Source: an uncultured Methanosarcinales archaeon
GTDB taxonomy: Archaea; Nanobdellota; Nanobdellia; Woesearchaeales; JABMPP01
DNA: 64,000 nt
Direction: 5' to 3'
NCBI GenBank assembly: GCA_964604995.1
Contig: CAZSAD010000005.1
Coordinates: forward strand, 3,221 to 67,220
The notes beneath the pieces are model-generated. The model saw only the letters and a program-made list of their open reading frames with translations. It did not search any database and was not told the origin of the DNA. Made by a program: the position numbers and the translations under genes. Shown here piece by piece: positions 1-60,847 of this stretch (positions within the stretch are counted from its first letter, which is position 1; every line of letters begins with the position of its first letter).

Positions 1-639
1 AAAGGTCAAGCAGCTTTGGAGTTCTTAATGACTTATGGCTGGGCTATTCTCGTTGTTTTAATTGTTATTGGTGCACTCGCATATTTTGGAATATTAAATC
101 CAAGTATCTTGCTACCAGAAAAATGTACACTTCAAATGGGTCTTTATTGTAAAGACCACAGAATAGATGGTACTAAAGGTCAAATCACATTCAATTTTGA
201 AAATGGTATGGGCAAAGATATCATCCTTTATCATGTCAATGTAACTGGCGATGTAATTCCTGGCGGATGTTATGCGGGAGTATATGGAAATGTTACTTCT
301 GGTGATACTGCAATGGTGCCATACACTTCAATTACAGGTTATGCTCTATGTGGTGTATCAGATGATTGCAGTGGTTGTACAGCAGTTGGTGGAGAAGGAA
401 AATACAGTTGTAACCCAGATCAAACAAACAAATTCAATACAGCATTTAATTCAAATGTAGGGTATAGAGTTGCACAAGGAACACAAGCAACAGTTGTAAC
501 AAACTGCACAGTAGCTCCACTTTCATGGACTGGAAAAGCAAAAACCAATTTGAATATACAATGGTATTATGCTGATTCATCTGTAGCATATTTGCACACA
601 ATGGAAGGAGAACTACTCGCAAAAGTCGAGGGTAAGTAA
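1..639 (+). CDS. Archaeal type IV pilin-like protein with class III signal peptide, 5'-partial; frame is open to nt 1
   Basis: Translation from nt 1 gives KGQAALEFLMTYGWAILVVLIVIGALAYFG, an archaeal prepilin N-terminus (KRGQ.A.E motif plus a hydrophobic helix). Cys-rich variable core. C-terminal HTMEGELLAK is shared with the downstream paralog. Confidence 0.7.
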   Translation, partial: KGQAALEFLMTYGWAILVVLIVIGALAYFGILNPSILLPEKCTLQMGLYCKDHRIDGTKGQITFNFENGMGKDIILYHVNVTGDVIPGGCYAGVYGNVTSGDTAMVPYTSITGYALCGVSDDCSGCTAVGGEGKYSCNPDQTNKFNTAFNSNVGYRVAQGTQATVVTNCTVAPLSWTGKAKTNLNIQWYYADSSVAYLHTMEGELLAKVEGK

Positions 640-720
640 ACCCTTAATTATTTTATTTTAATTTTTTATTTTTACTTATTTTTTATATTGTTTATTTATT
701 ATCAACTTCAAATATTATCG
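640..720 (+). terminator. T-rich tract after the stop codon; possible archaeal oligo-T terminator
   Basis: Several runs of 5-7 T within 80 nt downstream of the stop. In a genome this AT-rich that is weak evidence. Confidence 0.25.
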
Positions 721-725
721 CAATG

Positions 726-750
726 TTTTTATACTAATTGTAATATATTA
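726..750 (+). promoter_or_regulatory. TATA-like elements (tttttatac, taatatatta) upstream of the second pilin gene
   Basis: Two TATA-like boxes 24-46 nt upstream of the ATGs at 765 and 774. AT-rich background makes specificity low. Confidence 0.2.
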
Positions 751-764
751 AATTTTAACCAACG

Positions 765-1451
765 ATGATTAAAATGAATAAAAAAAGAGGACAAGCAGCT
801 TTAGAATTTTTAATGACTTATGGCTGGGCGGTTCTTGTTGTTTTAGTTGTTATTGGAACTCTTGCTTATTTTGGAATTTTAAATCCATCATTCCTACTTC
901 CAGAAAAATGTACACTTCAAATGGGCCTTTACTGTAAAGATCACAGAATAGATTCAGACCAAGGTACAATCAGTTTAAAACTTGATAATGGGATGGGTAA
1001 AGGTATTATCATAACTAGAATAAAAATTGCAGATCAAGCCCAAACAATTCTTTGTGATGTTGGAATTGGACCATATACTAGCAAGACTGATAAAAATGCA
1101 ACTTGTCAAACATCTCCACTTGATTGTTCAGGTTGTGGTAATTTTACTTATGATATTATGGATCAATTTTATGGTTATAGTCAACTACCTTACGATACAC
1201 AATATGATGGTAGCGTGATTGCATGCAATCCTCACGAAAACTTTAGAACTTCATTTAATGACAATCCAGGCTGGCGCATTGAAAATACACAAGATGGTGT
1301 AATTAAAATATATTGTCAAAGAATGTCTCAACAAGAAGGCAAAGTAAAAGTTGGAATCAGTCTTTTGTATTTTTATGACGATAGTTCCCCTGAATTTATA
1401 CACACAATGGAAGGAGAATTATTAGCTAAAATAGAATCAGTAAATATTTAA
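765..1451 (+). CDS. Archaeal type IV pilin-like protein, tandem paralog of 1..639
   Basis: MIKMNKKRGQAALEFLMTYGWAVLVVLVVIGTLAYFGILNPSFLLPEKCTLQMGLYCKDHRID; the N-terminal 60 aa are nearly identical to the upstream gene. Core differs. C-terminus HTMEGELLAKIES is conserved. Start could be ATG 774 (MNKKRGQ). Confidence 0.75.
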   Translation: MIKMNKKRGQAALEFLMTYGWAVLVVLVVIGTLAYFGILNPSFLLPEKCTLQMGLYCKDHRIDSDQGTISLKLDNGMGKGIIITRIKIADQAQTILCDVGIGPYTSKTDKNATCQTSPLDCSGCGNFTYDIMDQFYGYSQLPYDTQYDGSVIACNPHENFRTSFNDNPGWRIENTQDGVIKIYCQRMSQQEGKVKVGISLLYFYDDSSPEFIHTMEGELLAKIESVNI

Positions 1452-1544
1452 TTCTTTTAAAATTAATAACACAGATAATTATTTATAGTATCAATTCTAA
1501 TCCTTCTTATCTAATAATAACCCATAATACAATAAATTATTTTA

Positions 1545-1552
1545 AAAGAGGT
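1545..1552 (+). promoter_or_regulatory. Shine-Dalgarno-like aaagaggt, 5 nt upstream of ATG 1557
   Basis: GAGG core with ~5 nt spacing to the start. The same motif recurs before other starts in the window. Confidence 0.4.
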
Positions 1553-1556
1553 TTAT

Positions 1557-2033
1557 ATGGCATCAAAAAAAATTAGATACAAAACCATTACAAATTTTTC
1601 TCCAAAAAATATTCAAGGTCAAGTATCAATGGAATACATAATGATGGTTGCAGTTGCACTTTTAACTATTGTTCCTGTTGTCTATATTTTTTATTCATAT
1701 TCTAAATCCTCAACTAATGATATTATGTTTAATAGAGTAACTAGCATTGGTCGAAATATTGTTTACCAATCAGAATCGATATATTACTTAGGTGAACCTT
1801 CTAGAGTAACATTAGAAGAGACAATGCCCGAAGGCGTAGAAACCCTGGATATTCTAACTAGCTCAGAAGATAATATCTACGAGCTAGTATTTACACTTGT
1901 AAACAATAATACAATTGTAATTAGTTCAAAAGTGCCAATAGATGGTAATTTTGACAACAGCTCATACTCAGCAGGAATTAAAAATATTTTAATTGAATCA
2001 AAAGGAAGCTATGTTAATATTTCAATAAACTAA
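1557..2033 (+). CDS. Putative pilin-like protein with a class III-like signal peptide
   Basis: N-terminus ...KNIQGQVSMEYIMMVAVALLTIVPVVYIFY resembles the prepilin G/Q cleavage site followed by a hydrophobic helix. The leader is longer than usual. Confidence 0.5.
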   Translation: MASKKIRYKTITNFSPKNIQGQVSMEYIMMVAVALLTIVPVVYIFYSYSKSSTNDIMFNRVTSIGRNIVYQSESIYYLGEPSRVTLEETMPEGVETLDILTSSEDNIYELVFTLVNNNTIVISSKVPIDGNFDNSSYSAGIKNILIESKGSYVNISIN

Positions 2034-2080
2034 TTAACCTAATTAACTAATCATTTTAATTAATCATTTTTCCAATTTTA

Positions 2081-2086
2081 AGGTAA
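2081..2086 (+). promoter_or_regulatory. Shine-Dalgarno-like aggtaa, 6 nt upstream of ATG 2092
   Basis: AGGT core and spacing. Confidence 0.35.
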
Positions 2087-2091
2087 TCTTA

Positions 2092-2544
2092 ATGCAAATA
2101 TTATCATTTAATAAAAAAAGAGGACAATCAGCATTTGAAGCTGTGATGATAACAGGAGTTATGCTTTTAATCTTCTCGGTATTTTTTATTGTAATAAGCA
2201 ACAAATCCATTGATTCTAAAAAACAGCAAGATTTAGCTTTGTTAGATGATACTGCAAAAATAATTGTTGGTGAGCTTGATTTGGCTGTTGCAGCTGAAGA
2301 TGGTTATCAAAGAACATTTGAAATACCTTTATCACTAGGGCAAATTTATTTTAATATAACTTTATTGTCTGATTCTTTGCAATCAGCACATAGTGAAGTA
2401 ATCTTACAATCAATAAATACCACTTATGATCTTATAGCAATAGGAACCGTATCAGGAATAGTTAATGGTACTTTACAAAAAGGGGATAATATAGTTCAAA
2501 AAAAACAAAATATAGTTTGCGTAAACAAAGTAACTTGTCCATAA
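2092..2544 (+). CDS. Archaeal type IV pilin-like protein
   Basis: MQILSFNKKRGQSAFEAVMITGVMLLIFSVFFIV: KRGQ.A.E motif followed by a TM helix. Confidence 0.65.
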   Translation: MQILSFNKKRGQSAFEAVMITGVMLLIFSVFFIVISNKSIDSKKQQDLALLDDTAKIIVGELDLAVAAEDGYQRTFEIPLSLGQIYFNITLLSDSLQSAHSEVILQSINTTYDLIAIGTVSGIVNGTLQKGDNIVQKKQNIVCVNKVTCP

Positions 2545-2667
2545 ATAAATACCTTATAACAAGCCATAACTTACCAAATATTTAATCTAATAATCAAAAT
2601 CACTTAAATAAACAATAAAAATATTAAGAGGTTATCCTTAAATTACATAAGTTACAATAAATAAGGT

Positions 2668-3189
2668 ATGCAAATGGTTAAGTTTTCAAAATCAAAAATG
2701 TCGAAAAAAAGAGCTCAAGGTTGGGCAACTGATGTTTTAATAGGTGCAGGTATATTCATTGTAGGGGTAATGCTATTTTTTTATATAGTGGATAAAAAAT
2801 CAAAAACTGATAATGCAGGTGAAATTTTAAGTGAAGCTAACAATCTTGCAATTACAGTTGCAACCTCTCAATCTGATCCAAACAATCCATGTGCATTTAT
2901 TGTTGGCAATAAAGTTGACAAAAATAAATTGCAGCAATGCGCACAAGATTATCCACAAAGCAAATCTTTACTTGGTATGAAAAAAGATTTTTGTATTTAT
3001 TTTGTTGACCCTCAAGGAAATTTACTAAATATTTCAAGTCTTACAAATAACGAAGGAATAGGCCTTGGAAGTTCAGACATTAATTACACTTTAATTGATG
3101 ACAATGGGGACCCAGTTCAAGTAATGCCATGTAGGACAATACCTGTTCAACCTCCAACTTCTCCTCCAGATTTACCACCAATAAATTAA
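2668..3189 (+). CDS. Pilin-like membrane-anchored protein with a conserved C-terminal domain, paralogous to 3242..3793
   Basis: ...MSKKRAQGWATDVLIGAGIFIVGVMLFFYIV. C-terminal LGMKKDFCIYFVDPQGNLLNISSLTNNEGIGLGSSDINYTLIDDNGDPVQVMPC. The more likely start is ATG 2674, which has aaggt 6 nt upstream. Confidence 0.6.
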   Translation: MQMVKFSKSKMSKKRAQGWATDVLIGAGIFIVGVMLFFYIVDKKSKTDNAGEILSEANNLAITVATSQSDPNNPCAFIVGNKVDKNKLQQCAQDYPQSKSLLGMKKDFCIYFVDPQGNLLNISSLTNNEGIGLGSSDINYTLIDDNGDPVQVMPCRTIPVQPPTSPPDLPPIN

Positions 3190-3230
3190 ATTCATAAAAT
3201 TCAATTTTTTCAATAAATAATAAATTTAAC

Positions 3231-3236
3231 AAAGAG
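3231..3236 (+). promoter_or_regulatory. Shine-Dalgarno-like aagagg upstream of ATG 3242
   Basis: GAGG core 5-6 nt from the start. Confidence 0.35.
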
Positions 3237-3241
3237 GCAAA

Positions 3242-3793
3242 ATGATAGTTAATAATCTCCAAAAGACACAGAAGAATGCTAAAAAAATAAAAATTGTAAA
3301 TTCTAATAAAAAAATTAATCAAAAAATTAATCCACTTTACAATCCAATAATAATTGGTTTAATATTACTTTATCTTTTAATTATTGGAATTTATCTATTC
3401 GATTCATCTAAGAATTTTAATTTTTACAGCAATTTTTTCAATAAAAACTTATCTAGTAATTTTACAGATAATTCCAAATTAAAAATAAAAACTATAGAAA
3501 CTACCCTAGAGAATGAAGGGCAATTAATTGCTAAAAAAACAGATGTGACTTTTGTAGTCGATGGTAATATTGATAAAGCTAAACTCGAAGATTTCGCTTC
3601 AGAAAATTATTTACAAATAAAAGAACAATTGGGCTTAAAAAATGATTTTTGCATTCATTTTGAAGATAAAGATGGTAATGTAATTGATATTTCCCAAATA
3701 ACTCAAAGAAAAGGTATTGGAATTGGTAGTCCAGAAATGGAATATAAATTGATTGACAAAACTGGAGCTGCAATAGGGGTAGTTAACTGTTAA
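3242..3793 (+). CDS. Membrane-anchored protein sharing its C-terminal domain with 2668..3189
   Basis: TM helix IIIGLILLYLLIIGIYLF. C-terminus LGLKNDFCIHFEDKDGNVIDISQITQRKGIGIGSPEMEYKLIDKTGAAIGVVNC aligns with the upstream gene (DFCI.F.D..GN...IS..T...GIG.GS....Y.LID..G...V..C). Confidence 0.55.
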   Translation: MIVNNLQKTQKNAKKIKIVNSNKKINQKINPLYNPIIIGLILLYLLIIGIYLFDSSKNFNFYSNFFNKNLSSNFTDNSKLKIKTIETTLENEGQLIAKKTDVTFVVDGNIDKAKLEDFASENYLQIKEQLGLKNDFCIHFEDKDGNVIDISQITQRKGIGIGSPEMEYKLIDKTGAAIGVVNC

Positions 3794-3943
3794 CCTATTT
3801 TTTGTTAAACAATTTTTTAATTATCTTTATTTTCTCAATTTCTTTTTTCCAATATTATTCCCACTATTATTCCCAATTTTTTTATTATCATTACCTACCA
3901 ATTAAAACAAAGCTATAAAAACAGGCACTCAATTAAAAAATAC

Positions 3944-4534
3944 ATGTTCAAAAAAATAATGGGAATGGCATCTATCGATGATAAACTATCTGAAATTCTA
4001 TCCACTTTAAAAGAGCAATCAAAACAAATATCAACAATAAAAAAAGAAGTATCTGATATAAAAATTAAAATATCCAAATCTGAAGAGAATCTTTCAAATA
4101 TTGGTGAGAATGTTGATACTCTTAAAAATTCTTTAGGCAAGAGCATGGATAAATTTGATAACATGAATGAAGAACTTAAAGATGAACTGCAAGATTTCAA
4201 AGTTGTAAAAAGTCAGCTATCAAATAAATTATCTGAAAAGCTAACCCAAGAAATGAATGATATTTTTGCTCCAAATTTAGAAAGGTTAAAAGTCGATGTT
4301 AAACAATATAATGAACTAAAACTCGAATTAACAAAAATTTCATCTTCTCTTAATACATTACAAATTGAAATGGATAAATTTAATAAAATTTCAAAAAATA
4401 TAAGAGAAGCAGACTTTGAACTTGTTAAGCATGCTCGTCAGCTTCAAAATCTTGACAGAGAAAAATTAGAGCTCATGAAAAAAATCGATACTTTAGAAAG
4501 ATTAATCTCGCATGAAAGGCGTTATAAAAAGTAA
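3944..4534 (+). CDS. Coiled-coil protein, hypothetical
   Basis: K/E/L-rich heptad-like sequence throughout with no recognisable catalytic motif. SD-less. Confidence 0.45.
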   Translation: MFKKIMGMASIDDKLSEILSTLKEQSKQISTIKKEVSDIKIKISKSEENLSNIGENVDTLKNSLGKSMDKFDNMNEELKDELQDFKVVKSQLSNKLSEKLTQEMNDIFAPNLERLKVDVKQYNELKLELTKISSSLNTLQIEMDKFNKISKNIREADFELVKHARQLQNLDREKLELMKKIDTLERLISHERRYKK

Positions 4535-4613
4535 TTAAAAGTGTTCAATTCAATCCAGAAGCGAAAAGTATTTTAACTAACTGATATCATAAATCAATAA
4601 AAAAGGTGAAAAA

Positions 4614-4868
4614 GTGCCATTTATTAGTAAATATGTAACCAATGATGCAAAAATAGCAATGCCTATCGACTATGCAGCTCTTGCAATTCTATATAACATC
4701 ATTGGACTTGCAGCATTATTTGCAAGAAAAAATGAACAATCTTCTCTTTTAGTTGTATATATGCTTATGCTTGGCAATTTGCTCATGTTTATTGGCTATT
4801 TTTATATATTAAGTAAAGCAAGACAGCTCGAAGATAGAAAAGGTAAGGATCACAATAAATTAATCTAA
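4614..4868 (+). CDS. Small membrane protein, GTG start
   Basis: Two predicted TM segments. aaaaggtga SD-like motif 5 nt upstream of GTG 4614. Confidence 0.4.
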   Translation: MPFISKYVTNDAKIAMPIDYAALAILYNIIGLAALFARKNEQSSLLVVYMLMLGNLLMFIGYFYILSKARQLEDRKGKDHNKLI

Positions 4869-5121
4869 TTAATCCAATCAATCAAATCTAAGTTTTATCA
4901 TTTATATTTTTATCATTTATTAGTTTTTCTTCAATTTTCCCTCCCCTCTATCTTTCTCGAAAAACTATAGAAAAATATATAAACTCATTAGGCAATACTC
5001 GACTTTAGTTGGGTATAAAATGGTATTTTGGCATTTATTGTTTAAAATAATGCTTTTATGATTTTTGTCGTTAGAAATATGGCACATTTCAAATAAAATA
5101 CCTATATAGCGTGGGTTTACT

Positions 5122-6195
5122 TTGAATACAACTTTTTACAGAAAAAAAGTAGGGGTTAGTGTAATCTTTTCTAAGCGCAAGCTTTCTAAAAATAATTTAA
5201 TTTCTTATATCCAAAATAGTTTAAAGTTAATTGGAAAAAAAGCACAAATCACACTTTTTATGATTTTAGGTTTTGTAATACTATTTTCTTTTGGGATTTT
5301 TTACATGATGAGAAATACTACTCCTGCAAATAATTTAGATGCGCAAAATAATAAGATTATTGCAAGCAAAGATGATTTATCCAATGTTAAATTATTTGTA
5401 CAAACATGCTTAAAAAAAGCTGCAGATAAAAATACAGATGCAGAACTTGGTTATTTATGGATATTTGGTGAAAATGGTGGCACAGTAAAATTTGAATATG
5501 ATACCACAATTTCAAAAAAATTTGACACAGTGACTTTATTTGATAATGCAATAAAAAATGTTTCAATATCCTATGATATTAATGCTATTACGCAGGTAGG
5601 TAATAAAATTATAAGGAACCAAACAGATATGGAAAAAGAATTGGGAGAATATATCTTGAATGATTTTTTAAATTGCTTTAATGAAGAATCAATAAAAAAT
5701 AGAACTGGCTATTTGGTTTTTTCTCCTAAAAATTCTGCAGCTGAAGCTAAAATAAATGTCACATTCAATTATAATAATGTAAATATCGCATTGCAATATC
5801 CAATGAATCTAACAAAGGGGGATAATTTTATCGAAATAAAAAACTTTGAAGTTGATATCCCATTAAGAATTAATCAAACTTTACAGATAAGGAATAATCT
5901 GTTAGATCAAATTTCTTCTTCTTCTTCTTCTTTTGACATTTCAAATACTGATAATTGCAATATCATTTGCGATAAAGCCTTTCCCAATTATGCAAAACAT
6001 GATTTTATAATAAAAGCAGAAAATTCAGTGTCTTCCATTACCTCTGCCTCAAACACTTATACTATAATACAAATAAATGATTATTTTTCAAATATAAATT
6101 ATTATAAAAAAACCTACAAATTTTCTTTTGCATTAAATGAAACAAGTTTATCATCATCTGATCATTTAGTAACTGGTATTTGCACATGCAATTAA
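5122..6195 (+). CDS. Hypothetical N-terminally anchored, pilin-like protein, Ser-rich; start uncertain
   Basis: IGKKAQITLFMILGFVILFSFGIFYMM resembles a class III signal peptide. The ORF track starts at TTG 5122; there is no in-frame ATG before the TM segment, so a non-ATG start is implied. Contains a (TCT)6 SSSSSS tract. Confidence 0.45.
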   Translation: MNTTFYRKKVGVSVIFSKRKLSKNNLISYIQNSLKLIGKKAQITLFMILGFVILFSFGIFYMMRNTTPANNLDAQNNKIIASKDDLSNVKLFVQTCLKKAADKNTDAELGYLWIFGENGGTVKFEYDTTISKKFDTVTLFDNAIKNVSISYDINAITQVGNKIIRNQTDMEKELGEYILNDFLNCFNEESIKNRTGYLVFSPKNSAAEAKINVTFNYNNVNIALQYPMNLTKGDNFIEIKNFEVDIPLRINQTLQIRNNLLDQISSSSSSFDISNTDNCNIICDKAFPNYAKHDFIIKAENSVSSITSASNTYTIIQINDYFSNINYYKKTYKFSFALNETSLSSSDHLVTGICTCN

Positions 6196-6218
6196 TTAAC
6201 AAACTCGAAAAAAAGAAA

Positions 6219-9200
6219 ATGAAACTTAAACAAATCTTAATAATTGTAATTCTAATACTATTTTCATCAATTATCCTTTTATCAAATACTAAAAATTCAT
6301 CTGCACGTATTTTAGATTCTGACTCTGATGGTGTTTTAGATGAAGATGATTTATGTCCAGATACTTCTTTTTTCGCACCAGTTGATTTTAACGGTTGCTC
6401 ATGTGATCAAAAAAGTGTAAATAATACTTGCGTACCTGACAATAATGAATGTACTGGTTATTGCGGTGGTCCTAAGGCACAGTGCAATTATCCTTTAACT
6501 GGAGATTTGCTAAACCAGGGATTAATTTCTTGCAATGCAACTTATTGTGAAAATAATATTGTTCATACTTTCCCACAAACAATGTCTTCAAAATATTGTG
6601 TAGATGGTAATTTATTTAATAGAACTTCTTGTCAAGAAACACTTTCTTATCTCAAAGATTGCGGTAAAATACCCCTACCCATAAATCAAACAATAAATTT
6701 AACAAATCAAACCAATCAAACTATTCAACTTGGTTATTTAATTATTGAATCAAATCCTAGTAGTGCAGATATTTATCTAAACAATATTTATCAAAATAAA
6801 ACTCCAAGAAATTTTGAACTTAAATCAGGAACTTATAGACTAAATTTAATCAAAGAAGATTATATCCCTTATTCTTCGAATATCAAAATAAATTCTGGTC
6901 AACTTACTGATTTATTTATCAATCTAAATCCAGAAATTATCAATCCTTCAACATTTACATGCAATGACACTGACGGTGGAATATATTTTGAAACATTTGG
7001 AAAAGTTGCTTTGTGTAAATATTCAAATTCAACAATTGATTACTGCTTAAATTATTCTGATACTTGTGGATTGGCAGAAAATGGAAAAACATTAACTGAA
7101 TTTTATTGTCAAAATTCACAAGTAAAAAATATGACAACTGTTTGTTCAGGCCCATGTAAATATGGTGCATGTTCGCAGCAAAGCAATTTGCTACCAGTTG
7201 CAGTAATTTCAAGACCAATGCTTGGAGATTTAACTTATGTTAATGAACCTATTTACTTTAGTGGTATAAAAAGCTATGATCCTGAAGGAATGCCTTTAAC
7301 TTATACTTGGTTAATAGAAAATACTAAATCGTTTAATGTAACTACAACGCATACATTTTTAACAACTGGTATTAAATTTGCAACTTTAATTGTTTCAGAT
7401 GGAACCTATGTTGTAAATACTTCTATTAGTTTAAACATTCAAGAAAAAATAAATGGAACTAATCAAACAAATGAAACTAATACTTCCCTTTGTACTCTTA
7501 AAACAGCATTATGGTCAACTTTAGCAGCATACGAAGGGGATAATATTTCTTTATTTGTTTATGGTCCAAATTGTCAAAATAAACAACTTAATATTACAAT
7601 TTGGAGAAGAGATTTTTGGTTAGATGAATACATAGATTCAATTCCTTACCAATCATCTAATTCATTAGGTTTATTTAATGCAAGTTGGAAAGTAATTTGG
7701 AAAAATAGTGGTTGGAATTTATTTGATAACACTAAATATTATTTTGTTGCTCAAATAAAAAATTCTGAAGAAAAAATAATTTCTCCTGAAAATTTAGATG
7801 TTAAAAAATCTTCTTCTAATAATATTTTAATAACTGAACCTGGAAATTACAAATTGCAAATGAATTGGTATGATACTTCTGGAAGAACTTGGTTATCAGT
7901 AGGAGATGGTGTTTTTGGTAAATTGTTGCAAGCAGCAAAAAATGGTGATCTTTACGTAGATGTTATAATAGAAAAAAATTTTGCTATTAATGATAAATTA
8001 CTTTTAACTGATGGAACAAATAACATTGAAGTTTTAAATTATTCTCGAATTAAACTTCTTAGACCTACAACAGCAAAAAATCCACTTCTTAATGATTCAC
8101 TTAACGATTCATTTCAAACTATTGTTCGAATATACCTAAACACTCCTATTCAAAACAACTATTTATTAAATGCAATAGTAAGGCAATATTCTTTAGATTA
8201 TTCTGGAAATCTTCAAAATCTTAATGATACCATTGATTTAGGATATTTACAATATGGTGCAACTCCCATAACAAGCCATTTAACACAATGGATAAGCATT
8301 TTCAATGGTTATAATAGAACAATATTCCCTGTTGTATATTCAAATGATTCTAATTATTATTATGTTAATCAATTAAATTCAAGTAAATGGGATTTAACTT
8401 TTGACGACGGAGTAAGATTTGATTTCCCTTATAATGATGGTAATTTTCAAATTGTAAAATCCAATACGATACCTTCTTCTCCAAGTTTTGATGTTGAATT
8501 ATATGGGGCATCCATCCATTATGTTGATTTTCTTAATCCTAGCAGAAATTTTACTTTTTGGCTCAAAAACAATATACAAGAAAATAATTCCCCTTATCTT
8601 GGATTTGTTTATGGTTTAACAAATACATCTGATGAATGGATAAGCGGTGAATTTGGTGTTATTTATTATAAAGGAATCCCATACAATATAACAATTAAGC
8701 GTAGTGATGATTATACTCTACCTGTAAACCTAACAATTTCAAAAGGAACAACAAGTGTAAGTTACTTACTTTATCAAAAACAATTAACTTTCCCCTTATT
8801 CGATGGTTTAGCATTTTATATTCAAAGTTGGCCAGTTGGTTACAATTTGACAATTCTTAGTGTTGGAAAACTAGTTTACAATTTGAATTTTACAGTGCCT
8901 GTAATACAATATGGTGAAACAAAAAAAATTAATGGAACACTGCCTGCAGTAGCACCAGGCTTCTACTTGGTTATGTTTGATGCTTCACATCAAAATGATA
9001 TTGCACCATGGAACAATTTCCAAAATCCAACATATTATGTGCAAAAACAATATATTGACCTTGCAGTAAATATTCCTCCATACGATTATCTTATTGAAAC
9101 CAATACAACAACAAAATTCAATTTTACAATATCTAATTTAGGAACTATTGATGCAAAGAATAGCACTATAACAATAAATAAAACTAGTAATAATTATAAT

Positions 9201-12200
9201 TTTGGAAACAACACTCAAATAATTAAAATACCTTTGCCAATTATTCACCCTCTTGAAACATTAAATTTTTCATTTAATTATACATCAGAAAATCCTGAAG
9301 AGTTCTATTTTAAAATAAAGGTTCAAACAGAAAATGATACAGATAATGGGAATAATTATGTATATAGTTATGTAAATTCAGTTTTAGCAGGATTTAATTT
9401 ATATGTCATGTCTGCAGAAAGAAAATATCCTACGCCTTCAGAAGAAGGTTTTGTAACACTTCATACAGAAAATCTTGGTAGTAGGCCTTCTTCACAGTTT
9501 ACAGCTTACCATACAAATATAAAAGCTCTTCAATCATTTACAACTTGGATAAATCAAAATTATTCAACAGAAATCGAAGGTGTGATTTATAATATTACAC
9601 TTCTTGAAGTAGTAAAAACACAAGAATATAGTACATTAGGAAAAGCAAAGTTCAAACTTAATTATAATAATGGAACAGAAATATTTGAACTTTTTGCAGG
9701 AGAAACTATTGAATTATCAACTGGCAAATTCTTTGGTTTGATATCTACTCCAAATACTTTTTATGCATATTCTCTTATTGGAAATCTTCGCTATGTGAAT
9801 TCATTTACAGTGCCACCAATACCAATAAAATCTAATTGGGTTAAAATTAATATTACTCTTAAAAATGATACTCTTGGAAACTATTATTCATTCATAAGTT
9901 TTTATCATGCAAACGATACTTCTTTAGAAGATAATTTTGCTGTTGTTTCTTATACAATAAATCCAGATGGTCCAAATATAAGAACATTTAGTGATTGGTA
10001 TTATTACACTACAACAATAAATGAAACAATTCCAATACCTTTTACTCTTGAAAATATTGGCAATAGATATTCAGGTGATGTAAATTTCAGAATAAATATA
10101 TCTGACAAATCGCAGTTTGATCCAAATTTTAACTCTACTTTGCTCTCAGAATTTACATTGCCAGGTCTTTACCCTGGAGAAACTTCTAGTTATTCCTATA
10201 ATTTTACCTGGCAAAAAAGTGGAAAATATTTCTTATTCATGCAAGCGAACATATCAAATGACACTAACCCTTACAATAATCTTCATTATGTTACAATAAT
10301 GGTTGTTAAAAACACAACTAATGTTTCAGCAGAATTAACACTTTCAACATTAAAAGATAATTATGAAATTGGGGAAATAATTAATTTAACTGATCCGCCT
10401 GCAATAATTAATTCAAAAGCAACGCTTTCTCCAATACAATTTTCAAATTCAATAACTGGCAATGCCATTAATTTACCAACTGAACAATTTACTAATTTTG
10501 ATGATACATCTATGTTTTATCAAACCAGAAAAAATTATCCAACTAATTATACAAATAAAACTTTAGAATACAATGGTTATATTGTAAAATTCAAAAAAGA
10601 GCCAATAACAAAACAAAAAGTAAATTTAGAAAATGAAATAATAAAGCAAAAACAAATCACTCAAACATTATCTTTAACAAATAACAATCAAATAGCTGCA
10701 AGTAAACCAAATCAACAAAATTCTTTATTATTAACTGCATCAGATAAATTACAAGTTAATACTAAATTAATAGCTTACCAAGCAGAAATACAATCAGAAC
10801 ACTCTTTAGCAAAAATAGATATTTCTCAAAAATTAAGCAAATCATTAACTAGTAAGATAACAGGGGAATTTACAAAAACATTCAATGGAATTGCACTAGA
10901 TATAACTGATGCAGAAGCCCAACAGTTAAAATCAAGTTTTTATGTTGAAGAAGTTTATCCTAATTACAAAGTCTATGCAACATTAATGGACTCTGTTCCA
11001 TTAATTGGTGCAGATAAAGTTTGGCAAATAAATTCTTATGGAACACCTTGCATCAAATATGGTGGAACTGAAGAATGCTTAACTGGCAAAGGTGTAACAA
11101 TTGCAGTAATTGATACTGGTGTTGATTATACTCATCCTGATTTAGGTGGCTGTTTTGGATCGGGCTGCAAAGTTGCAGGAGGATATGATTTTGTTAGCAA
11201 TGATAATAACCCAATGGATGATAATGGACATGGAACACATGTAGCTGCAACAGCAGCAGGCAATGGAACATTAAAAGGAGTTGCACCTGGTGCAACTATT
11301 TATGCTTACAAAGTTCTTAATAGTGGCGGCTCAGGTTCCACCAATAACATTATTGCAGCAATAGAACGTTCTGTTGATCCGAATAATGATAATGATTTTA
11401 CAGATCATTTAGATATTATTTCCATGAGTCTTGGAGGCTCTGGAACTCCTGATGATCCCTTAAGTCAGGCGGTAGACAATGCAGTTGACAATGGTGTTAT
11501 TGCAGTTATTGCAGCAGGAAATTCAGGTCAGTTCAATACACCATCTATTGGTAGCCCCGGTAATTCTCGAAAAGCAATTACAGTAGGTGCAACATATAAT
11601 AAACATTCTTATAATTATTATTCTGAAATAAAACTCAACGCCACAGTTGGCGGCAGTATGGGTGACACTGATTATTTTGAAAGTATACCTGTTCTTGGTT
11701 CAATGCCTACCAATGCAAATTATCAATTGCATGATTGGATATATGCCGGAACAGGAACCATATCTAATTTTACTTCTAAAAATTTCACAAATAAAATAGC
11801 TTTGATATATTTAGATGGTGTAGAATATCCAGAAATATTATTGGAAAGAGCAATAGCATCAAATGCATATGCTGTAATATTTTATTTCAATCCTTATCCA
11901 AATAAAATTACTGATTATTATTTTCCATTAGCATATGATATTGAAATTCCATCAGCAGTCATTGCTACTAATGATATTACTACTCTTTTTGAATATACTC
12001 AAATAAATCAACCAATAAGTCTTTATTTGAATATTTCATTGGTGACTAATATTACAGATGCAGATAAAGTGCCTTATTTTAGTTCACAAGGTCCATCATT
12101 CGATGAATTTTATGCAATTGGAATCAAACCAGAAATAGTTGCCCCAGGATATGATATTTGTGCTGCTTTGACTTACAATGGTGTTTTTCCAAAATATGAA

Positions 12201-15200
12201 AGAGCATGCGGCCAAGGACATACTCCTCTTTCAGGAACAAGCATGGCAACTCCTCATGTTTCAGGAGCATCAGCACTGCTAAAACAAGCACATCCTGATT
12301 GGGGAAACAAAGAAATAAAATCTGCTTTGATGGTATCTTCAACATCTCTTGGAGAAAATCCAAATATCTTTGGTACCGGAAGAATAAATGTTACATCAGC
12401 ATTACATCCAAGAATTTATTTAAGTGAACCCACTTTGAATTTTGGGCATATTAAATTTAACGACGAAAAAACAATAACATTTACTATAAAAAATTTATTC
12501 CCTGACCAAACTATAATAAATTTAAATTTTTCATCAGTTGATTCCAATGTTCAATTGATTGTCAGTCCAAATGTTGTCAATCTTAATCCTAACGAAGAAA
12601 AACAAGTTACAGTACACTTGAAATATTTGCACGATGAACCCTCTTACTTAACACCTCTTACAAATTATCTTACAATCCAAGGTGATACCAATGCAAAAAT
12701 ACCTTTATTATATTATAAAACTACAAACAGATCAATAGTTGGATTCACTCAAGACCCTGGAGAAATTTCTTCATCATTAATACCACGTTTCTATACATTA
12801 AAACTTAACGATATTAATAACGATGGATATGTTGAGATGTTAGGGGGCAGTAGTGCACTTTTTAGTTTTAACAATTTTGAAAATAATATTTCAGATTATA
12901 ATATTTTATATGCTCCCCCTTGTATTTATGATATGTATAGTGAAGGTTGTTATCCAGATACAGTTGAATCAATAGCTGTTGAAGATTTTAACCATGATGG
13001 AAATAAAGAAATTCTTGTTGGAGGGGTACAAGGATATCTTAGGCTTCTGGAAAAAAATTATAATCCTAAAAATTTGACAAAAACAATAGTTAGTTCAGAA
13101 AACTTTACTTTTGGAAATTATAATTTTACGACATCTATAAATCCATATGGTCAATTAATAGTATCTGCTAAAAATGTTGACAATCCCTTATTTATTACTT
13201 TTTTTAATCTTAGAATTAGTGAAAGTGAATATGATAGTGAATATGGATACATTGAGAATATTATTTTTCATTTGGTAAGTTTGCAAAATGGCATTGCAAT
13301 AGTTGAATTACAAGAAAATGAATATAAACCAACTATGCTAAATAAGTTTAGAGAACAATTATGGGCAATGGACTCAGCAGATTTTAACAATGATGGTTGG
13401 CAGGATGTTGTTTTCTCTTATTCTCCTTTGCCTTTTGTTTATAATGTTTCCATTCTTTTTAATGATGGGAACGGAAATCTAAACAACCTTTATACAATAT
13501 ATAACCTATATGGTAATCAAATTTCTGGTTTAACTGTCGGAGATGTTGATAATAATGGATTTAAAGATGTAATAATAGGATATTCTATTTCTCCTAATAG
13601 CATCTATAAAACCTATGGGGTAACAAAATTACTTAAAAATAATGGCAACAACAAGTTTTATGATAGTGGAGTTATATCTACATATGGCACAGGAATCTCA
13701 GGTCATCCAGAAAATGATATTAATCCAAGAGTTGTACTAGCTGACTTTGACAATGATGGCAATCTTGAACTTGTGATTGGAGATAACAGTGGAAAAATTA
13801 GGATATTAAAGAAAGACAATACTGGCAGATATAATGAAGATTTATTAATAAATAAAGGCCTGCTTTTTGACTTTGGTCAATTATCATGGGGAGTTGCAGC
13901 AAGCGATATTAATAATGATGGTAAAATTGATTTGGTGGTTGCTTCTGCTTCAAGAAATGATTTTTATAGATTTTCACTTTATACTAAATTGAATAATGGT
14001 AATTTTACTAATTTTGCACCAGTTCGTCCAAAATCACAAATAATAAACAATGGAACAATAAATATAACTGGATATTTGTTTATGGATGTTGAACAATTCT
14101 TAGGCAATTCTTGGCAAGGATACCAAATGGTTTATGAAGATACTTTACCAAGAACAATTCCTGCAAATAATGTCCAAGCATTAGATACTATTTGGAACAA
14201 TTATAATATTTCAATTAATAATCCTGGAAAATACAGAGTTCATGCAGAGTTTAGAGATGCATATAGTGGAGAGCCAATTCAAACAACAACTGGCTATCTA
14301 AATAATTATTGGGAGTTTAATGTTAGTGGAACAATTCCAACTTTGCCTTCAGCACAACTAACTTTATCAACATTAAAAGATAATTATGAAACTGGAGAAA
14401 TAATTAATTTAACTGATCCACCAACTGGAGAAATAAACACTGCAAATGTGAATAGACTCGTAAAAAACAATGAAGATTCAATTGCTTTGCTAAATATTTT
14501 AGAAGATGCTGCTGCAAAAAGCAAACAGGAAAATAAATTTTCAGAAGGAATTATTGAACAAACCCCTACCTTTTCAAATCTTCCAAAATATGTTAAAGGA
14601 GAGTTAATAGTAAAACTAAAAAATGATATTTCAAATAAGATTAGTGCCAATGTTGTCAAAACAGATATCAGTACCTTAGACAGTTTAAACAGCAAATATG
14701 GCGTTAAGAATATTGAGAATGTTTTCCCTGCTAAACATGAAAGCTTTTTTGAAAGTTTGGCAAATAATGTAAAACAAACATTCAACATAGAAGTTCCTTC
14801 AAGAGAGTTAAATAAAGTATACAAAATTAAAATTAATCAAAATACAGATGTTGAAAAAGTTGTAAAGGAATACAGTGCAGTTTCTGAAGTTGAATATGCT
14901 GAGCCTAATTATATTTATTATACTAATTTTGTTCCAAATGACAAGCTTTATTCACAGCAATGGTCTCATCAAATAACAAGTGCTGAGATTGCATGGGATA
15001 CTGAAAAAGGAAGCTCTTCTACAATCATTGCAATTATAGATACGGGAGTAGATTATAATCATGAAGATCTTAAAACTAATATATGGCACAACCCCAAAGA
15101 AATTCCAAATAATGGAATCGATGATGATAATAATGGATATGTAGACGATACAATTGGATATGATTTTGTTGATTATCAAGAACTAGTTGATTATTGCAAT

Positions 15201-18200
15201 GCAAATCCCAATATCTGCAGGATATCTCCAAGAGAAGATTATCTCAAATTAGACAATGATCCAATGGATGTTGTTGGGCATGGAACACATTGTTCAGGGA
15301 TTGCTGCTGGAGTTGGCAACAATAATTTGGGGATAATAGGAATATGTCCTTCATGTAGCATAATGCCAGTTAGGGCAGGAATGTTAATTGAAATAAATTC
15401 AAATGGCCAATATTATCAAAGTGGTGGCCTTAGTGATGATGCAATTGTAAATGGGATTAAATATGCTACAGATAACGGAGCTAGAGTAATAAGTATGAGC
15501 TTTGGAGGAAGGGAATATTCACAACTTCAGAAAGATATGATTGATTACGCATACAGCAAAGGTGTTGTTCTTATTGCTGCTGCAGGAAATGAGAATACCG
15601 CTGAAAAACCATACCCTGCAGGTTATGATAATGTGCTTTCAGTTGGTGCAACAGATGAATTAGATAATAAAGCATCTTACTCAAATTATGGGGATTGGGT
15701 TGATGTAGCAGCGCCTGGAAGCAACATACTTAGTACAGTACCAACAAAAATAAGTTACAGTTCAGAGCTTAAACTTGGATATAGTTTATTTGATTCCTAT
15801 CCTTTTGAATATTCTGCAATAGTGGAAGATGAAAGTGTTCATGGCATGTTGGCTAATGCAGGTAATGGAACAATAGAAGAACTAAATAATGTTAACCTTA
15901 CTGGAAAAATAGTTCTTATTAAAAGAGGAGATATTTCATTTCATGATAAAGTTGAAAATGTTTATAATAAAGGTGCAATTGGTGTTATAATCTATAATAA
16001 TGCACCTGGTAGTTTTATAGGCACGTTAGTTAATCAATCAAAAATACCTGCAGTAAGTGTAAGTGAGGTAGTTGGAAATTCTTTGCTTTATTATGTTAAT
16101 AGCTCTTTGATAAATATTTCAATAAAAGTAAATAAGATAACAGAAAATTATGAACTTGAAAGCGGAACTTCTATGGCAACACCTTATGTTGCAGGAATTG
16201 CAGGATTGTTGCTATCGAAAGAACCTAGCCTAAAAAATAGTGAAGTTTATGCTAAAATTATTACCGGAATAGATTTGATTCCTGATAAAACTATAGGTCA
16301 AGGTAGGGTCAATGTTACAAAAGCATTACAAGAAAATCCTAATTCTATTATAACTCTGGAAAATGTGAATATTAATGCTAACACTGAATATAATGAGATA
16401 AATCCCGGAGCAGCAGTTGATATTTATTTTACATTAAAAAATATCGGCGCAAATGCGGGAGATGTTCAAGGAAGTATTATAATTGATAATTCTTATGCAA
16501 CTGTATCTGAAGGGAATATTGATTTTGGAACAATGGATACACTTGCAATAAGAAAAAACACTGCTCCATTTATAATAAAAATAAATAATAATACTCCTAA
16601 AGGAACTAAAATAAATGTTAAGTTAAAATTGACTTCTGCTAATTCTAACTATTCACCTGAATTTGATGTACCAATATATACTTCAAAAACAATAGTTGTT
16701 GGCAAGGATAATCAAAGTGATTATAAAAACATAGGTGATGCTGTAAAAAATGCAAATAGTGGCGATATAATTTTTATCAAAAATGGAATTTATAATGAAA
16801 CTATTACAATAGACAAAAATAATCTAAAGATTATTGGAGAGTCAAGAGATAATACTATCCTTAGTACTAATAATTCATTTGGTGTAGCATTATATATTGC
16901 AGCTGCAAAAAATGTTATTATTGAAAGTATTACATTTGAGCCAAACTCACAATTAAATATTTATAGGGGATTCTCACAAGAGGGGATATTAATATCTGGA
17001 CAAAGCAGTATTTTACCTTCAAGCAACATAAAAATCAGAAATTCTTCATTTAAAAATCTGGACTATGCAATAGATTTGAATGGTCCAGGTTACATAGAAA
17101 ATGTTACTATTTCAAATTCTACATTTATTGATAATTATGAACCTTTGATAAGAAGTATTAGTATGGGTAATAAGATTATAGATGTTTCTTTTGAGAATAA
17201 TTATGTAATAATCAACAATCTTTCAAAATGGATACCTGATGATAGCGGAGGAAATGCTTATGCTTTTTTCAATGATGGTTTGTCCAGCATAGATAATTTT
17301 AGAATAATGGGGAATCATATAATTGATAATGTTAGCAGGGAGCCTAAAAATGCAGTTTCTTTTTTGCATGTATTTATGTTAAACTTTGATGTGGATACTA
17401 AAGATTTAAATAAAAATATTTCAAATAATATATTTGAAAAAACTTATCCTGGAAATTCAAGTACTGCTTTCATACTTGGCGGAAAAAATAATTATTACAT
17501 GTCAAACAACAAATTTGTCGGAAATTATCAACATCTAATTTATAGTCTCGGTTCAAATGTAATAATTGATGGAACAAAACTACAGGACAATATTGGCTCT
17601 GAAGGGGATTATACATATTCTTGTTATTATTTTGGACCAGGCAGTCTTTTAGTTTCGCATAGTGAAATAATAAACGGTACCTTGGAAATTGATTCATGTT
17701 CTGTAAATGATAAAATAAATTATTCAGTTAATTCAAATAGGTATTCTGAGTATACTGGTGAAGATATTAATGGGGATGGAATAGGTGATACTCCTCAGAA
17801 GATTTATGACCAAAATGGAAATTTTATAACACAGGACAATACACCATTAATTTTATTTTCAGGTATAAAATTAACTCGTCCAAAATCACAAATAATAAAC
17901 AATGGAACAATAAATATAACTGGATATTTGTTTATGGATGTTGAACAATTCTTAGGCAATTCTTGGCAAGGATACCAAATGGTTTATGAAGATACTTTAC
18001 CAAGAACAATTCCTGCAAATAATGTCCAAGCATTAGATACAATTTGGAACAATTATAATATTTCAATTAATGATCCTGGAAAATACAGAGTGCATGCGGA
18101 ATTTAGAGATGCATATGGTGGAGAGCCAATTCAAACAACAACTGGCCTTCTAAATAATTATTGGGAGTTTAATGTTAGTGGAACAATTCCAATAATTCCA

Positions 18201-21200
18201 TCAGGAGAATTAAATTTATTCACATCAAAAAATAATTATCTACAACAAGAGTCAATAATACTAACTAGTAATTCAAAAATAGAAAATACTGGTTTAATCC
18301 CAATTACCGGCTATTTATCTGCTAATATCGAGCAATTTAACATTTATTATCAAATAAACGAAGAAACTGATAAAAAGAAAATTGGGAATGAATACAATTT
18401 CTTAGAACTTGGAGAGGCAATTAATGCAACTGGTCAGACAATATTCTCATCAAATGATTTAAATGCACTTTCAAATGAAACTTTCCAAAATTCTCTTGGA
18501 ACATTTACATATACTCAAAAATTAGAATTACCTTCTGCAAAAGTTGTTTTTGAAGAAGATACTGATCAATCAAATGATCCAAGCTTATACTTAAAATTCG
18601 ATGCAAATAAACCAGCATACACCTACACTTTGCAATTTACTCCTCCAATTGAAAGCGGAATCATAAATCAAACTCTTAAAGATCTACAAGGACATAATTT
18701 GCAATTATTTGACAAAACTTTTCAAATAATTTCTGCAAAAAATGAAAGTAACAAATTATCCTTAAATTTATTACAAACAGAATTAGTTGATATCTTACAA
18801 GAAGGCTCAACAAAAACTTATACTCACAATGGAAAAGACTACCAAGTAACAGCAAGTTACATCTCAAGTAGCGAAGCAAGGTTTACAATAAATGGTGAGA
18901 CAACTGATAAATTATCGGAAGGAGAAACTTACACTTTAGTCGATGGAACAAGAATTGGTGTTTTTGATATAATAACTAATTTTATTGGGGAAAATTTATC
19001 AAATAATTTTGTTCAATTTGGTTTAGGAGTAAATAACTTAAAAATAACTGATTACAATCCTTCAACAGCTAATTGGGATGCAAAAGTAGCTGATGGCAAT
19101 GAAGATTTAATGAATTTAAAAGCAGATATTATAGTTACAAGTTTTTCAAATGGTATTACTAAAATAAAAGAATTAAAATTTAAATATCTTCCTTCAACAG
19201 ATCTGCATGTACCAATTAGTGGAAAATTAAGCACAATAGCAGAGTATGAAGAAAGTGAACTAGGAAATGTTCTTGTCAATGGTTTTGATGTTCAATTAAA
19301 AGGATTTAATGAAACTCAATTAAATTGGGAAGCAATAAAAATCTTTAGCAGTTCAAGTCTTAGTTATAATTTAATATTTAGAAATAGAAATGGACAAACA
19401 TATAACATTCCTGTTTGGGGATACGATAATTCATCTAGAAAAATTAAACTAGGTTATAGGGATGATTATTCATTTAAAAATTTAATAATAAATGAAGCAA
19501 TACCTATCTTAACTAATGAATATTTTATATTAAGCCCATCCTCAACACAAAAAACACACATCTTCCAATTCAATAGTGTAAACACAAATGATAACACTTT
19601 CAAAATAAAAGATTTAATGGAAGGTGGTTCAACAATAGAAGTAACTAATGCAACATCTTTTGTTGTTGATGGAACAGCATATTATGCTTATTATAATGGT
19701 TCAGGAAGTGATGCAAAGATTTATGTTGATTTAAATGGCGATGGAATAATTCAACAAGGTCAAAAAGTAGACAAAATATATACCTTTTATTCTGGAAGCG
19801 ATGGATATTTGCAGCTTATTCAAAATAATATTTCAACAAATGCCTCAGGAATTTTTGTAACACAAAAAACTCAAAACCTGCCTCAAAATAATTTCCAAGA
19901 AAAAATAAAATGGAAATTTTATTTTAATTACACTTCAAATAAAATAATGCTTGATAGTCCCATCAATGATTTTGGATCTTATGATTCAATGAAAAAATTA
20001 GATTCACTAGACAAATATGTTGGTCTAACTTACTATGGCGCTTATGGCGACTATGATTATGGAAATGCACAAAGTCCATTATTAGAATTCCAATATCCCA
20101 ATCAACAATTAGAAATACTTGTTTATGTTATGGGTAATAATTATCCTACACCTCAAGCAATTTCAAGTTGGCAACATTATAGCACTATTATAGATGAAAA
20201 CTTTTCAAGAACAGTTCCTGCAAATAATGTCCAAGCATTAGATACTATTTGGAACAATTATAATGTTTCAATTAATGATCCTGGAAAATACAGAGTTCAT
20301 GCAGAGTTTAGATATGAATATGGTGGAGAGCCAATTCAAACAACAACTGGCCTTCTAGAAAATGTTTGGGAGTTTAATGTTAGTGGAACATCATCACAAT
20401 ATCAAATGCAAATAACCTATCCACAAAATAATTCCATAATACTTAGTAGTTCTACTCAAGTATTAGTAACTACAAATACTCCTTCTTCTTGCGATTATTC
20501 ATACATGGTAGTTTCTTCAAATGGTGTAGGTGTGGGCTCACCAACTATATTTATGTCAACAACAGATGCATATCATTTTTCTGCAACAATTAATAATTTA
20601 CTCTATGGTGATAATGTTACAGTTCATGCATATTGCTATTCTAATGAGGGTAATGTTTATGCAACCTCTTCAGTATTTTTTAGAGTTCAAATTTCTTCGC
20701 AATGTGGAAATAATTTATGTGAAGGCAATGAAACAGTGCAAAGCTGTCCAATTGATTGTAGGGAAGTAAACTATCCAGAATACTGCCCACAATATAACAA
20801 AGCAAATAATGATAATAGTAACCATGGACCAGGGGGAAACTTGGGAAATTCTTTATCACTTTCTACAAAAACAAATTTTGATACATTAAGTGAAGAAACT
20901 TTAAAGAAAATTATTATTCAAGGTGATATTCAAAAATTTAAATCATTAAAACTTTCAGTGCAAATGATAAGTCCTGGAATTTTTAGTGTAACTTCTAAAA
21001 ATCAAAGAATCGATGTAATGCAGCAAAAACTGCCTGAAATAGCAACACTAATGGATAGCAATGGAAATAAATTTGTTGTAAATCTTGCTGTAGTTTTTAA
21101 TGAGCAATATGCAAATGGTTACATTGTTGAGTTTGAAGGATTGTCATTAGTTGAATACAAAAAACAACTTGAATTAAATATCAAAGATATGCAAACCAAA

Positions 21201-40934: not shown

Positions 40935-41447
40935 ATGAAAAAGAAGGGCGACCTTAGTTTATCTGTAAACGCAATAGTTGTTCTTATTTTAGCCATTACT
41001 ATGTTAGGACTTGGCTTAGGTTTTATGAAAGGAATGTTTGGTAAAGTATCCGGTAATATTGACAAAGCAATATCTTCCGGTGAATTGGAAACTCCAGCAA
41101 CAGCAAATACTCCTTTCACAGTCTCTACAAAAGATTTTGAATTAAAAAGAGGAACCTCCACAAGACTTGATTTTGGATATTTCAATGATCAAAATGCAAA
41201 AGCAACAATAGCTTACACTGACATCACTTGTAAATCAGGCGCAGACGATACCGAAACAGATTTCGATTTTACTTATCCGAGTGAAAAAGATGTTGAAGTT
41301 AATCAAGCAATTGCATTTTCAATTTTAATGGCTGCAAAGACAACGGCTACTTCACGAACAAGTGTATGTACCATTGAACTTACAACTACACTAAGTACAG
41401 GTGTAGGTAAGAGTTATACCAAAGACATATTTGTCAAAGTTCCATAA
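40935..41447 (+). CDS. Archaeal pilin-like protein with a class III signal peptide
   Basis: MKKKGDLSLSVNAIVVLILAITMLGLGLGF. Confidence 0.6.
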   Translation: MKKKGDLSLSVNAIVVLILAITMLGLGLGFMKGMFGKVSGNIDKAISSGELETPATANTPFTVSTKDFELKRGTSTRLDFGYFNDQNAKATIAYTDITCKSGADDTETDFDFTYPSEKDVEVNQAIAFSILMAAKTTATSRTSVCTIELTTTLSTGVGKSYTKDIFVKVP

Positions 41448-52644: not shown

Positions 52645-52657
52645 GGTGTTATTATTT

Positions 52658-54826: not shown

Positions 54827-54845
54827 GTTAATACCTTATTATATT

Positions 54846-60747: not shown

Positions 60748-60847
60748 ATCTGTTCTCTACAACTATATATATTTTTTCATATATGGTCATAGTAACTAAA
60801 TATTTCCGTTATCCCTTTTTTAATTGGTGAACTTGAAATAAAACTAA

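Follow-up and report, generated by a model that had tools for sequence, protein, structure and literature searches.

What is encoded by a block of small genes with pilin-like N-termini that lies directly in front of two giant genes in the DNA of an uncultured archaeon? The question is raised by the first 6,195 nucleotides of the window, by which we mean the whole stretch of 64,000 nucleotides that was analyzed here (contig CAZSAD010000005.1, positions 3,221 to 67,220). The window has a G+C content of about 29%. It encodes the archaeal markers ribosomal protein S6e, eIF2-gamma, a NOG1-type GTPase and L10e, and the database homologs of its genes carry the names Woesearchaeota, Nanoarchaeota or Pacearchaeota, which identifies the source as a DPANN archaeon; it comes from groundwater metagenomes. 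Positions 1..6195 are occupied by nine genes, all on the + strand, which we call g1 to g9. An initial annotation, made by reading the letters alone, had assigned class III signals to at least six of them and had suggested that they are either pilins of a pilus encoded elsewhere or stalks that display the downstream proteases. The analysis described here indicates that g1 to g5, probably together with g6, very likely form the subunit module of an archaeal type IV pilus in a Woesearchaeota-like DPANN archaeon. The type of system is already known; it is built from protein families that are not yet named in databases.

The open reading frames listed in the initial annotation are all present, and pilin-like leaders were found on the products of g1 (1..639), g2 (765..1451; 228 residues), g3 (1557..2033; 158 residues), g4 (2092..2544; 150 residues) and g5 (2668..3189; 173 residues). 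The 5' end of g1 is cut by the window. The full protein, which has 216 residues and starts with MGKKKGQAALEF, was taken from L001, a different assembly of this locus. In all five proteins a short basic leader ending in [K/R/Q][G/A] is followed by Gln at position +1 and then by a hydrophobic helix of 20-30 residues. With an arrow at the predicted cleavage site, the leaders read MGKKKG↓QAALEFLMTYGW in g1, MIKMNKKRG↓QAALEFLMTYGW in g2, NIQG↓QVSMEY in g3, KKRG↓QSAFEAV in g4 and KKRA↓QGWATDV in g5. The pattern of a class III leader, [KR][GA] and then a hydrophobic helix, occurs in g1, g2, g4 and g5, and in g3 with Gln at position -2. The same types of leader are present in 22-28 homologs each of g3, g4 and g5. 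The sites conserved among the homologs of g2, g3, g4 and g5 are, in this order, K[KR][GAS]↓QAA[LM]EF, K[GA]↓QASMEY, KKA↓QSSIE and KKA↓QTWSxD. Gln at +1 is invariant or nearly so in the families of g1 to g5, and Glu at +5 is invariant in the families of g3 and g4; the 23-member alignment of the g4 family shows no exception at either position.

The Pfam model PF04021 (Class_IIIsignal) has 27 positions and was built on proteins of the type QxSxExxxL. It scored g3 with 19.6 bits (E 9e-4), which is below the cut-off of 23.7 bits, and left g1, g2, g4, g5 and g9 unmatched; among the members of the g3 family it matched 9 of 29 (E<=0.01). The archaeal Pfam family DUF7266 was matched by 12 of the 23 members of the g4 family, and g5 gave weak matches only, to DUF7287 and DUF7262. 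A six-frame scan of the window with a FlaFind-like pattern produced just two spurious internal matches. Literature searches on the motif EFLMTYGW and on DUF7266, DUF7287 and DUF7262 returned nothing. The product of g5, a minor pilin-like protein, has a conserved C-terminal domain with the pattern DFCIxFxD...GIG. The next gene, g6 (3242..3793), is a paralog of this globular domain (44% identity to g5 over 81 residues, E 2e-22). Its product is anchored in the membrane at the N-terminus and lacks a [GA]Q site for cleavage; motif-less paralogs of the g6 type are also found in three related loci (L003, L008 and L062).

The genes g1 and g2, the candidates for the major pilin (paralogs A and B), are tandem paralogs with 46% identity (E 9e-64), as the initial annotation had recognized. 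It had also described near-identical N-termini and a common C-terminus. Both features are real: the first 66 codons specify 53 identical residues, and HTMEGELLAK occurs at the C-terminus of both proteins. Among these 66 codons 16 differ only synonymously. On this ground the shared N-terminus is best explained by purifying selection on the protein, and a recent gene conversion as the source of the shared 5' ends was rejected. The cores of the two proteins had been called unrelated, which overstates their divergence. In the pairwise alignment all 8 Cys are in matching positions, including those in the motifs DCSGC and CNP, and the middle parts differ mostly by insertions and deletions.

The database contains 414 relatives of g2, which belong to a large family, as yet without a name, of Woesearchaeota and Nanoarchaeota. 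All of them are annotated as 'hypothetical'; one is labelled UPF0333 by JGI. An alignment of 29 members of the g2 family (P0014), to which g1 also belongs, shows that E14-A22 (EFLMTYGWA), P46-C49 (PEKC), C57, N75, G78 and C97 are invariant. For residues 13-36 of g2, the agreement with the majority residue of the column is 93-96% across the 29 divergent homologs. Such a conservation fits a helix in the core of a filament and not a disposable Sec signal.

The AlphaFold2 model of g2 contains a helix at residues 10-35, which is followed by a beta-sandwich. This predicted fold of the g1/g2 family matches that of solved archaeal pilins, and it has the architecture expected of a pilin, namely an N-terminal alpha-helix and a beta-rich globular domain. 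Residues 109-160 of g2 are a lineage-specific, Cys-containing insert; it is found in 13-43% of the family members and is modelled with a low predicted local distance difference test score (pLDDT). The view that these proteins combine constrained termini with a variable exposed part is supported by this insert.

The pilin genes also differ between strains, a kind of variation that the initial annotation had singled out as worth a search. In the assemblies L006 (3255-3395) and L007 (3255-3365), g1 is followed by a short spacer of ~40 nucleotides with GGAGG and then by a third gene, which shares an identical 5' end with g1; these assemblies lack g2 together with its long AT-rich spacer at this place. 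Furthermore, the contigs of several assemblies break inside the pilin tandem. Since the third gene replaces g2 in L006 and L007 and contigs end inside the tandem, we conclude that the pilin gene content varies within the population.

The absence of a pilus ATPase and a platform gene from the window, already reported in the initial annotation, was confirmed. Pfam detected no genes for T2SSE, T2SSF or an A24 peptidase in the window, and a tblastn search of the window with the ATPase and the platform proteins of a relative gave nothing. Upstream of g1, the assembly L001 shows purA and a gene for a PHP-domain protein directly adjoining and no pilus machinery. The cluster begins right after purA, and the order purA-pilin-pilin recurs in the nearest relative for which a long contig exists.

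The machinery is found next to homologs of these genes in other genomes. A scan of species-representative genomes identified at least 583 stretches that encode relatives of g2; 80 of these were fetched, and 83 loci were analyzed. The genes T2SSE-T2SSF-T2SSF are located directly 5' of the g2 homolog in two contigs, L004 (Nanoarchaeota) and L010 (from a metagenome). An ATPase gene is present in 28 of the 83 loci and a pair of platform genes in 31 (L004, L010 and 29 more). The linkage to the upstream region was counted in the 51 species-level loci in which at least 4 kb of sequence precede the pilin gene. In 17 of these the g2 homolog comes right after the ATPase gene and the two platform genes, with the platform gene directly upstream on the same strand; in 7 a platform gene lies elsewhere in the locus, and the remaining 27 have none. 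Because about half of these related loci (27/51) have no ATPase gene within 10 kb, a stand-alone pilin block, as in the window, is common. The genes on the other side of the pilin follow in the same order: downstream of the g2 homolog there are homologs of g3 in 38, of g4 in 26 and of g5 in 25 of the 83 loci, including L003 and L004. The adjoining T2SSE and T2SSF genes of the homologs and the many loci with no machinery nearby make pilins of a pilus with its machinery encoded elsewhere the best reading of the two that had been offered.

The ATPase in L004 (L004:6555-7997) reached 278 bits on the NCBIfam FlaI model. This is far below the cut-off of 550 bits and indicates that the protein belongs to the FlaI/TadA family and is not an archaellum motor. 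A Pfam search of the window found no archaellin domain, and no KaiC-like FlaH gene was called in L004 or L010. Together with the low FlaI score, these results argue for a pilus and not for an archaellum.

The related loci encode two more conserved pilin-like families for which no homolog was detected in the window. One has ~165-205 residues and the motif K[KR]G↓Y(F/L)FT(L/I)DA; the other has ~335-500 residues and the motif K[KR]G↓IFFT. Their genes are located at L003:13674-15421, L004:1906-3404, L008:12770-14343 and L010:1643-3762.

Some observations weigh against the assignment of g1 to g5 to a pilus. No Pfam or NCBIfam model scores above its threshold on any of the five proteins, and profile searches of the PDB with the families of g2 and g3 give no solved structure by sequence. 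The residue at -2 in g3 is Gln and not Lys or Arg. Neither the window nor the 3.5 kb upstream of it contains a gene for an ATPase, a platform protein or a prepilin peptidase, and a crude search of the related loci for an A24 peptidase, by motif and by the count of transmembrane segments, yielded spurious matches only.

From the leaders, the conserved helices and the gene order in relatives we infer how such a pilus might be assembled and used. The precursors would enter the membrane via their N-terminal hydrophobic helix. Cleavage after the Gly or Ala at -1, by a class III (prepilin) signal peptidase with its gene elsewhere, would then leave Gln at +1. The subunits would be polymerized by an ATPase of the FlaI/TadA family and two TadC/FlaJ-like platform proteins, the genes for which would likewise lie in another part of the genome, with the invariant helices packing as the core of the filament. 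The products of g1 and g2 could serve as alternative or mixed major subunits, which would turn the beta-sandwich and the variable Cys-containing insert outward. The products of g3, g4 and g5 would be minor pilins of low abundance, which prime the assembly or cap the filament. The likely role of the pilus would be attachment to a host cell or to a surface.

The same set of subunits could alternatively build a short pseudopilus, comparable to the piston of type II secretion or to a bindosome, which does not extend but exports or anchors surface proteins. Bacterial pseudopili are driven by the same class of machinery (T2SSE and T2SSF), the cluster contains several minor-pilin-like genes in a fixed order, and DPANN genomes encode many very large surface proteins. 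However, no particular cargo genes are tied to the loci across the relatives. The multiple diverging tandem copies of g1/g2 and their exposed variable inserts are also in better agreement with a surface-exposed fibre, so that we consider a pseudopilus quite unlikely.

From the position of the cluster one might think of a different function, as a stalk or a 'functionalised' type IV filament on which the neighboring giant subtilase and surface proteins are carried or presented. Giant 1 (6180..23366, + strand) encodes 5,728 residues with three Peptidase_S8 domains as well as FG-GAP, PEGA, CARDB, PKD and PA domains. Giant 2 (23397..32528, + strand) encodes 3,043 residues; it has no protease domain and a lipobox-like start (...LTGC). 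The initial annotation, which spoke of giant protease genes, was hence right for the first of the two and not for the second. The idea of a stalk gains from the fact that the cluster is contiguous with the giants and on the same strand, that g9 with its class III-like motif QITLF overlaps the start of giant 1, that a paralog of g9 with 722 residues is encoded within a conserved operon of large surface proteins, and that functionalised archaeal filaments have been proposed in the literature. The comparison between loci, however, does not bear it out. A subtilase gene is present within 10 kb in just 2 of the 83 loci of the g2 family, and the genes that come after the cluster in L003, L004, L008 and L010 have housekeeping functions or are unrelated. 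The giants have N-termini of their own, which are Sec-type or lipobox-like and not class III, and an AT-rich gap of 253 nucleotides separates g8 from g9. The rarity of subtilases, the N-termini of the giants and this gap indicate that the adjacency of g1 to g6 to the giants is probably incidental. With one of the giants being devoid of a protease domain as well, it is very unlikely that g1 to g5 are display stalks for the downstream proteins, and we have dropped this part of the initial annotation.

It is very unlikely that the N-termini are ordinary Sec signal peptides or anchors of unrelated, non-polymerizing membrane or secreted proteins: the subthreshold Pfam Class_IIIsignal score and the anchor without a cleavage motif in g6 would agree with this, but it is at odds with the invariant G/A-Q right before the hydrophobic stretch and the acidic residue at +5 or +6, with the transmembrane length of this stretch and its conservation of >90% across the family, with the directly adjoining T2SSE and T2SSF of the relatives and with the pilin-like predicted fold.

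Among known systems, the type IV pilus proposed for g1 to g6 seems to resemble most an adhesion pilus of the 'system 1' or Epd type; we do not claim membership in this subtype. System 1 consists of an ATPase, two platform genes and many pilins and is found in methanogens, Thermococcales and DPANN; two platform genes are not exclusive to it, since some DPANN loci of the 4A type also have two (10.64898/2026.04.22.720090). The Epd pili of Methanococcus maripaludis (system 1; clade 1 of Makarova et al. 2016) share with the present cluster an ATPase and two TadC-like platform genes, here in the DPANN relatives only, and a large number of genes for pilin-like proteins with a [KR]G↓Q leader; Gln is the residue at +1 in g1 to g5. 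In both cases the major pilin may be encoded away from the machinery. This is a general feature, as the genes for major pilins usually lie apart from the operon for the machinery, either singly or in tandem; for one ATPase clade, which also occurs in nanoarchaea, the cognate pilins were not identified (Makarova et al. 2016, PMC4858521). In M. maripaludis a change of the Gln at +1 to Ala in the pilin EpdE abolished processing, and the authors infer that this Gln is essential for the prepilin peptidase EppA (PMC4390842). The two systems differ in the subunit itself. EpdE has ~70 residues and no globular domain, whereas g1 and g2 have 216-228 residues with a beta-sandwich and a variable insert; a pilin of the ~70-residue EpdE type was not seen in the cluster. 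Moreover, a crude motif search found no EppA-type peptidase in any of the loci.

Other archaeal pili show partial similarities. The PilA-type adhesion pili of the euryarchaeon Haloferax volcanii (PilA1-6 with PilB3/PilC3) also have several paralogs of the major pilin, in which the hydrophobic N-terminus is conserved while the globular parts diverge, and the pilin genes are likewise apart from the operon for the ATPase and TadC. The weak ties of the g4 and g5 families to the archaeal Pfam families DUF7266, DUF7287 and DUF7262 may point in the direction of euryarchaeal PilA-type proteins. Unlike the Haloferax PilA proteins, the pilins of the window have the N-terminal motif QAALEFLMTYGWA and no match to Pilin_N. 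The identity to the solved crenarchaeal pilins from Pyrobaculum (8fk7, 6w8u), Saccharolobus (8fjs), Aap (8q30) and Ignicoccus Iho670 (5kyh) is only 9-13%. Profile searches show no relation to these in sequence, and g2 differs from them by the extra Cys-containing insert of ~50 residues.

It is assumed that DPANN archaea spend their life attached to host cells, and pili are leading candidates for this contact. In the databases, the genes for their pilins carry no annotation beyond that of hypothetical proteins. The locus described here and its relatives define a widespread candidate family of major pilins, with the at least 583 stretches in species-representative genomes, and the three syntenic families of minor pilins could be used as profile models for annotation. 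The diverging tandem paralogs and the differences in gene content between strains suggest variation of an exposed surface, which would have a bearing on the host range. Contigs with members of the g2 family (L012, L064 and many others) are also present in metagenome-assembled genomes labelled Omnitrophica, Saccharibacteria, PVC group or 'uncultured Methanosarcinales'; in these cases DPANN contigs were probably binned or labelled wrongly.

The last gene before the giants, g9 (5122..6195; 357 residues), had been counted among the six genes with a class III signal. The count holds for g1 to g5. In g9 the motif GKKA↓QITLF is indeed present, but it is located 41 codons after the sole upstream start codon (TTG), and the next ATG is inside the hydrophobic segment. 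The motif is retained in a variant contig, which has a different sequence further upstream. The AlphaFold2 model of g9 is poor (pLDDT 55) and insufficient for a fold search. A relation of g9 to the KRG↓IFFT family of the related loci ('Z'; 335-500 residues) was rejected (hhalign probability 0.5%).

A relative of g9 exists further downstream in the window. The gene at 52658..54826 (- strand) encodes the protein of 722 residues, of which g9 is a short paralog (E 2e-17), with the leader MRMKKRG↓QITLF. The database contains 12 other homologs of the 722-residue protein; all 8 of the starts that were read have K[KR]G↓QIT (QLT in one). The gene is the fourth in a conserved operon (51841..63964, - strand) of five genes for large surface or membrane proteins of 1038 (cut by the edge of the window), 1407, 588, 722 and 267 residues. 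All five are orthologous to genes on a Woesearchaeota contig (L092; 2043+, 1363, 407, 719 and 265 residues), and only the first has a Pfam match (PEGA). The polytopic protein of 267 residues beside the 722-residue gene was considered as an A24 peptidase and rejected: it has no GxGD motif and one conserved Asp only.

These data suggest that g9 is probably a unit separate from g1 to g6, and a functional tie of the QIT family to giant surface proteins is possible. One could go further and propose that g9 and its 722-residue paralog represent a separate family of large proteins with K[KR][GA]↓QIT leaders, which in Woesearchaeota and Pacearchaeota share operons with giant surface proteins, and that this family is cleaved by the prepilin peptidase and becomes part of the g1/g2 filament or is attached to it. 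We regard this as unlikely. If it were true, giant adhesins or subtilases would sit at the end of a pilus and attack or grip the host, and the structure would be a protease-bearing 'functionalised' archaeal type IV filament. The class III-type leader on non-classical pilins such as g9 and the 722-residue protein is reminiscent of the Sulfolobus bindosome and its substrate-binding proteins. Unlike in the bindosome, there are no substrate-binding or ABC-transporter domains, and the neighbors are giant surface proteins and not transporters.

Two other genes, neither of them pilin-like, are located between g6 and g9. The product of g7 (3944..4534) is a coiled-coil protein with only coiled-coil-type matches in Pfam and NCBIfam and with no signal or transmembrane segment; g8 (4614..4868) encodes a membrane protein of 84 residues. 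Homologs of g7 and g8 were not found among the 83 related loci, and their membership in the system is uncertain. With respect to expression signals, TATA-like AT-rich boxes are present ~40 nucleotides upstream of the start codons of g1 and g2. A promoter scan with a bacterial model, which is inapplicable to an archaeon, gave 42 sites versus 43.3 expected. A hairpin followed by runs of T at 628..645 (+ strand) overlaps the stop codon of g1 and may be a terminator or an attenuator after the first pilin gene.

Finally, the distal part of the window contains two more pilin-like genes on the + strand, one at 40935..41447 with the leader MKKKG↓DLSLSVNAIVVLIL and its paralog (E 9e-9) at 41760..42335 with the leader MKSKKG↓IELSVNFLVIIIL. 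In both of them the residue at +1 is not Gln. They may represent a second class of substrates of the prepilin peptidase or a second filament. The gene at 45183..45908 (- strand) encodes a homolog of Lit, the lipoprotein intramolecular transacylase (PF07314, E 2e-23). Lit is known as a bacterial (Firmicutes) enzyme family; the homolog in the window may be connected with the lipobox-like start of giant 2.

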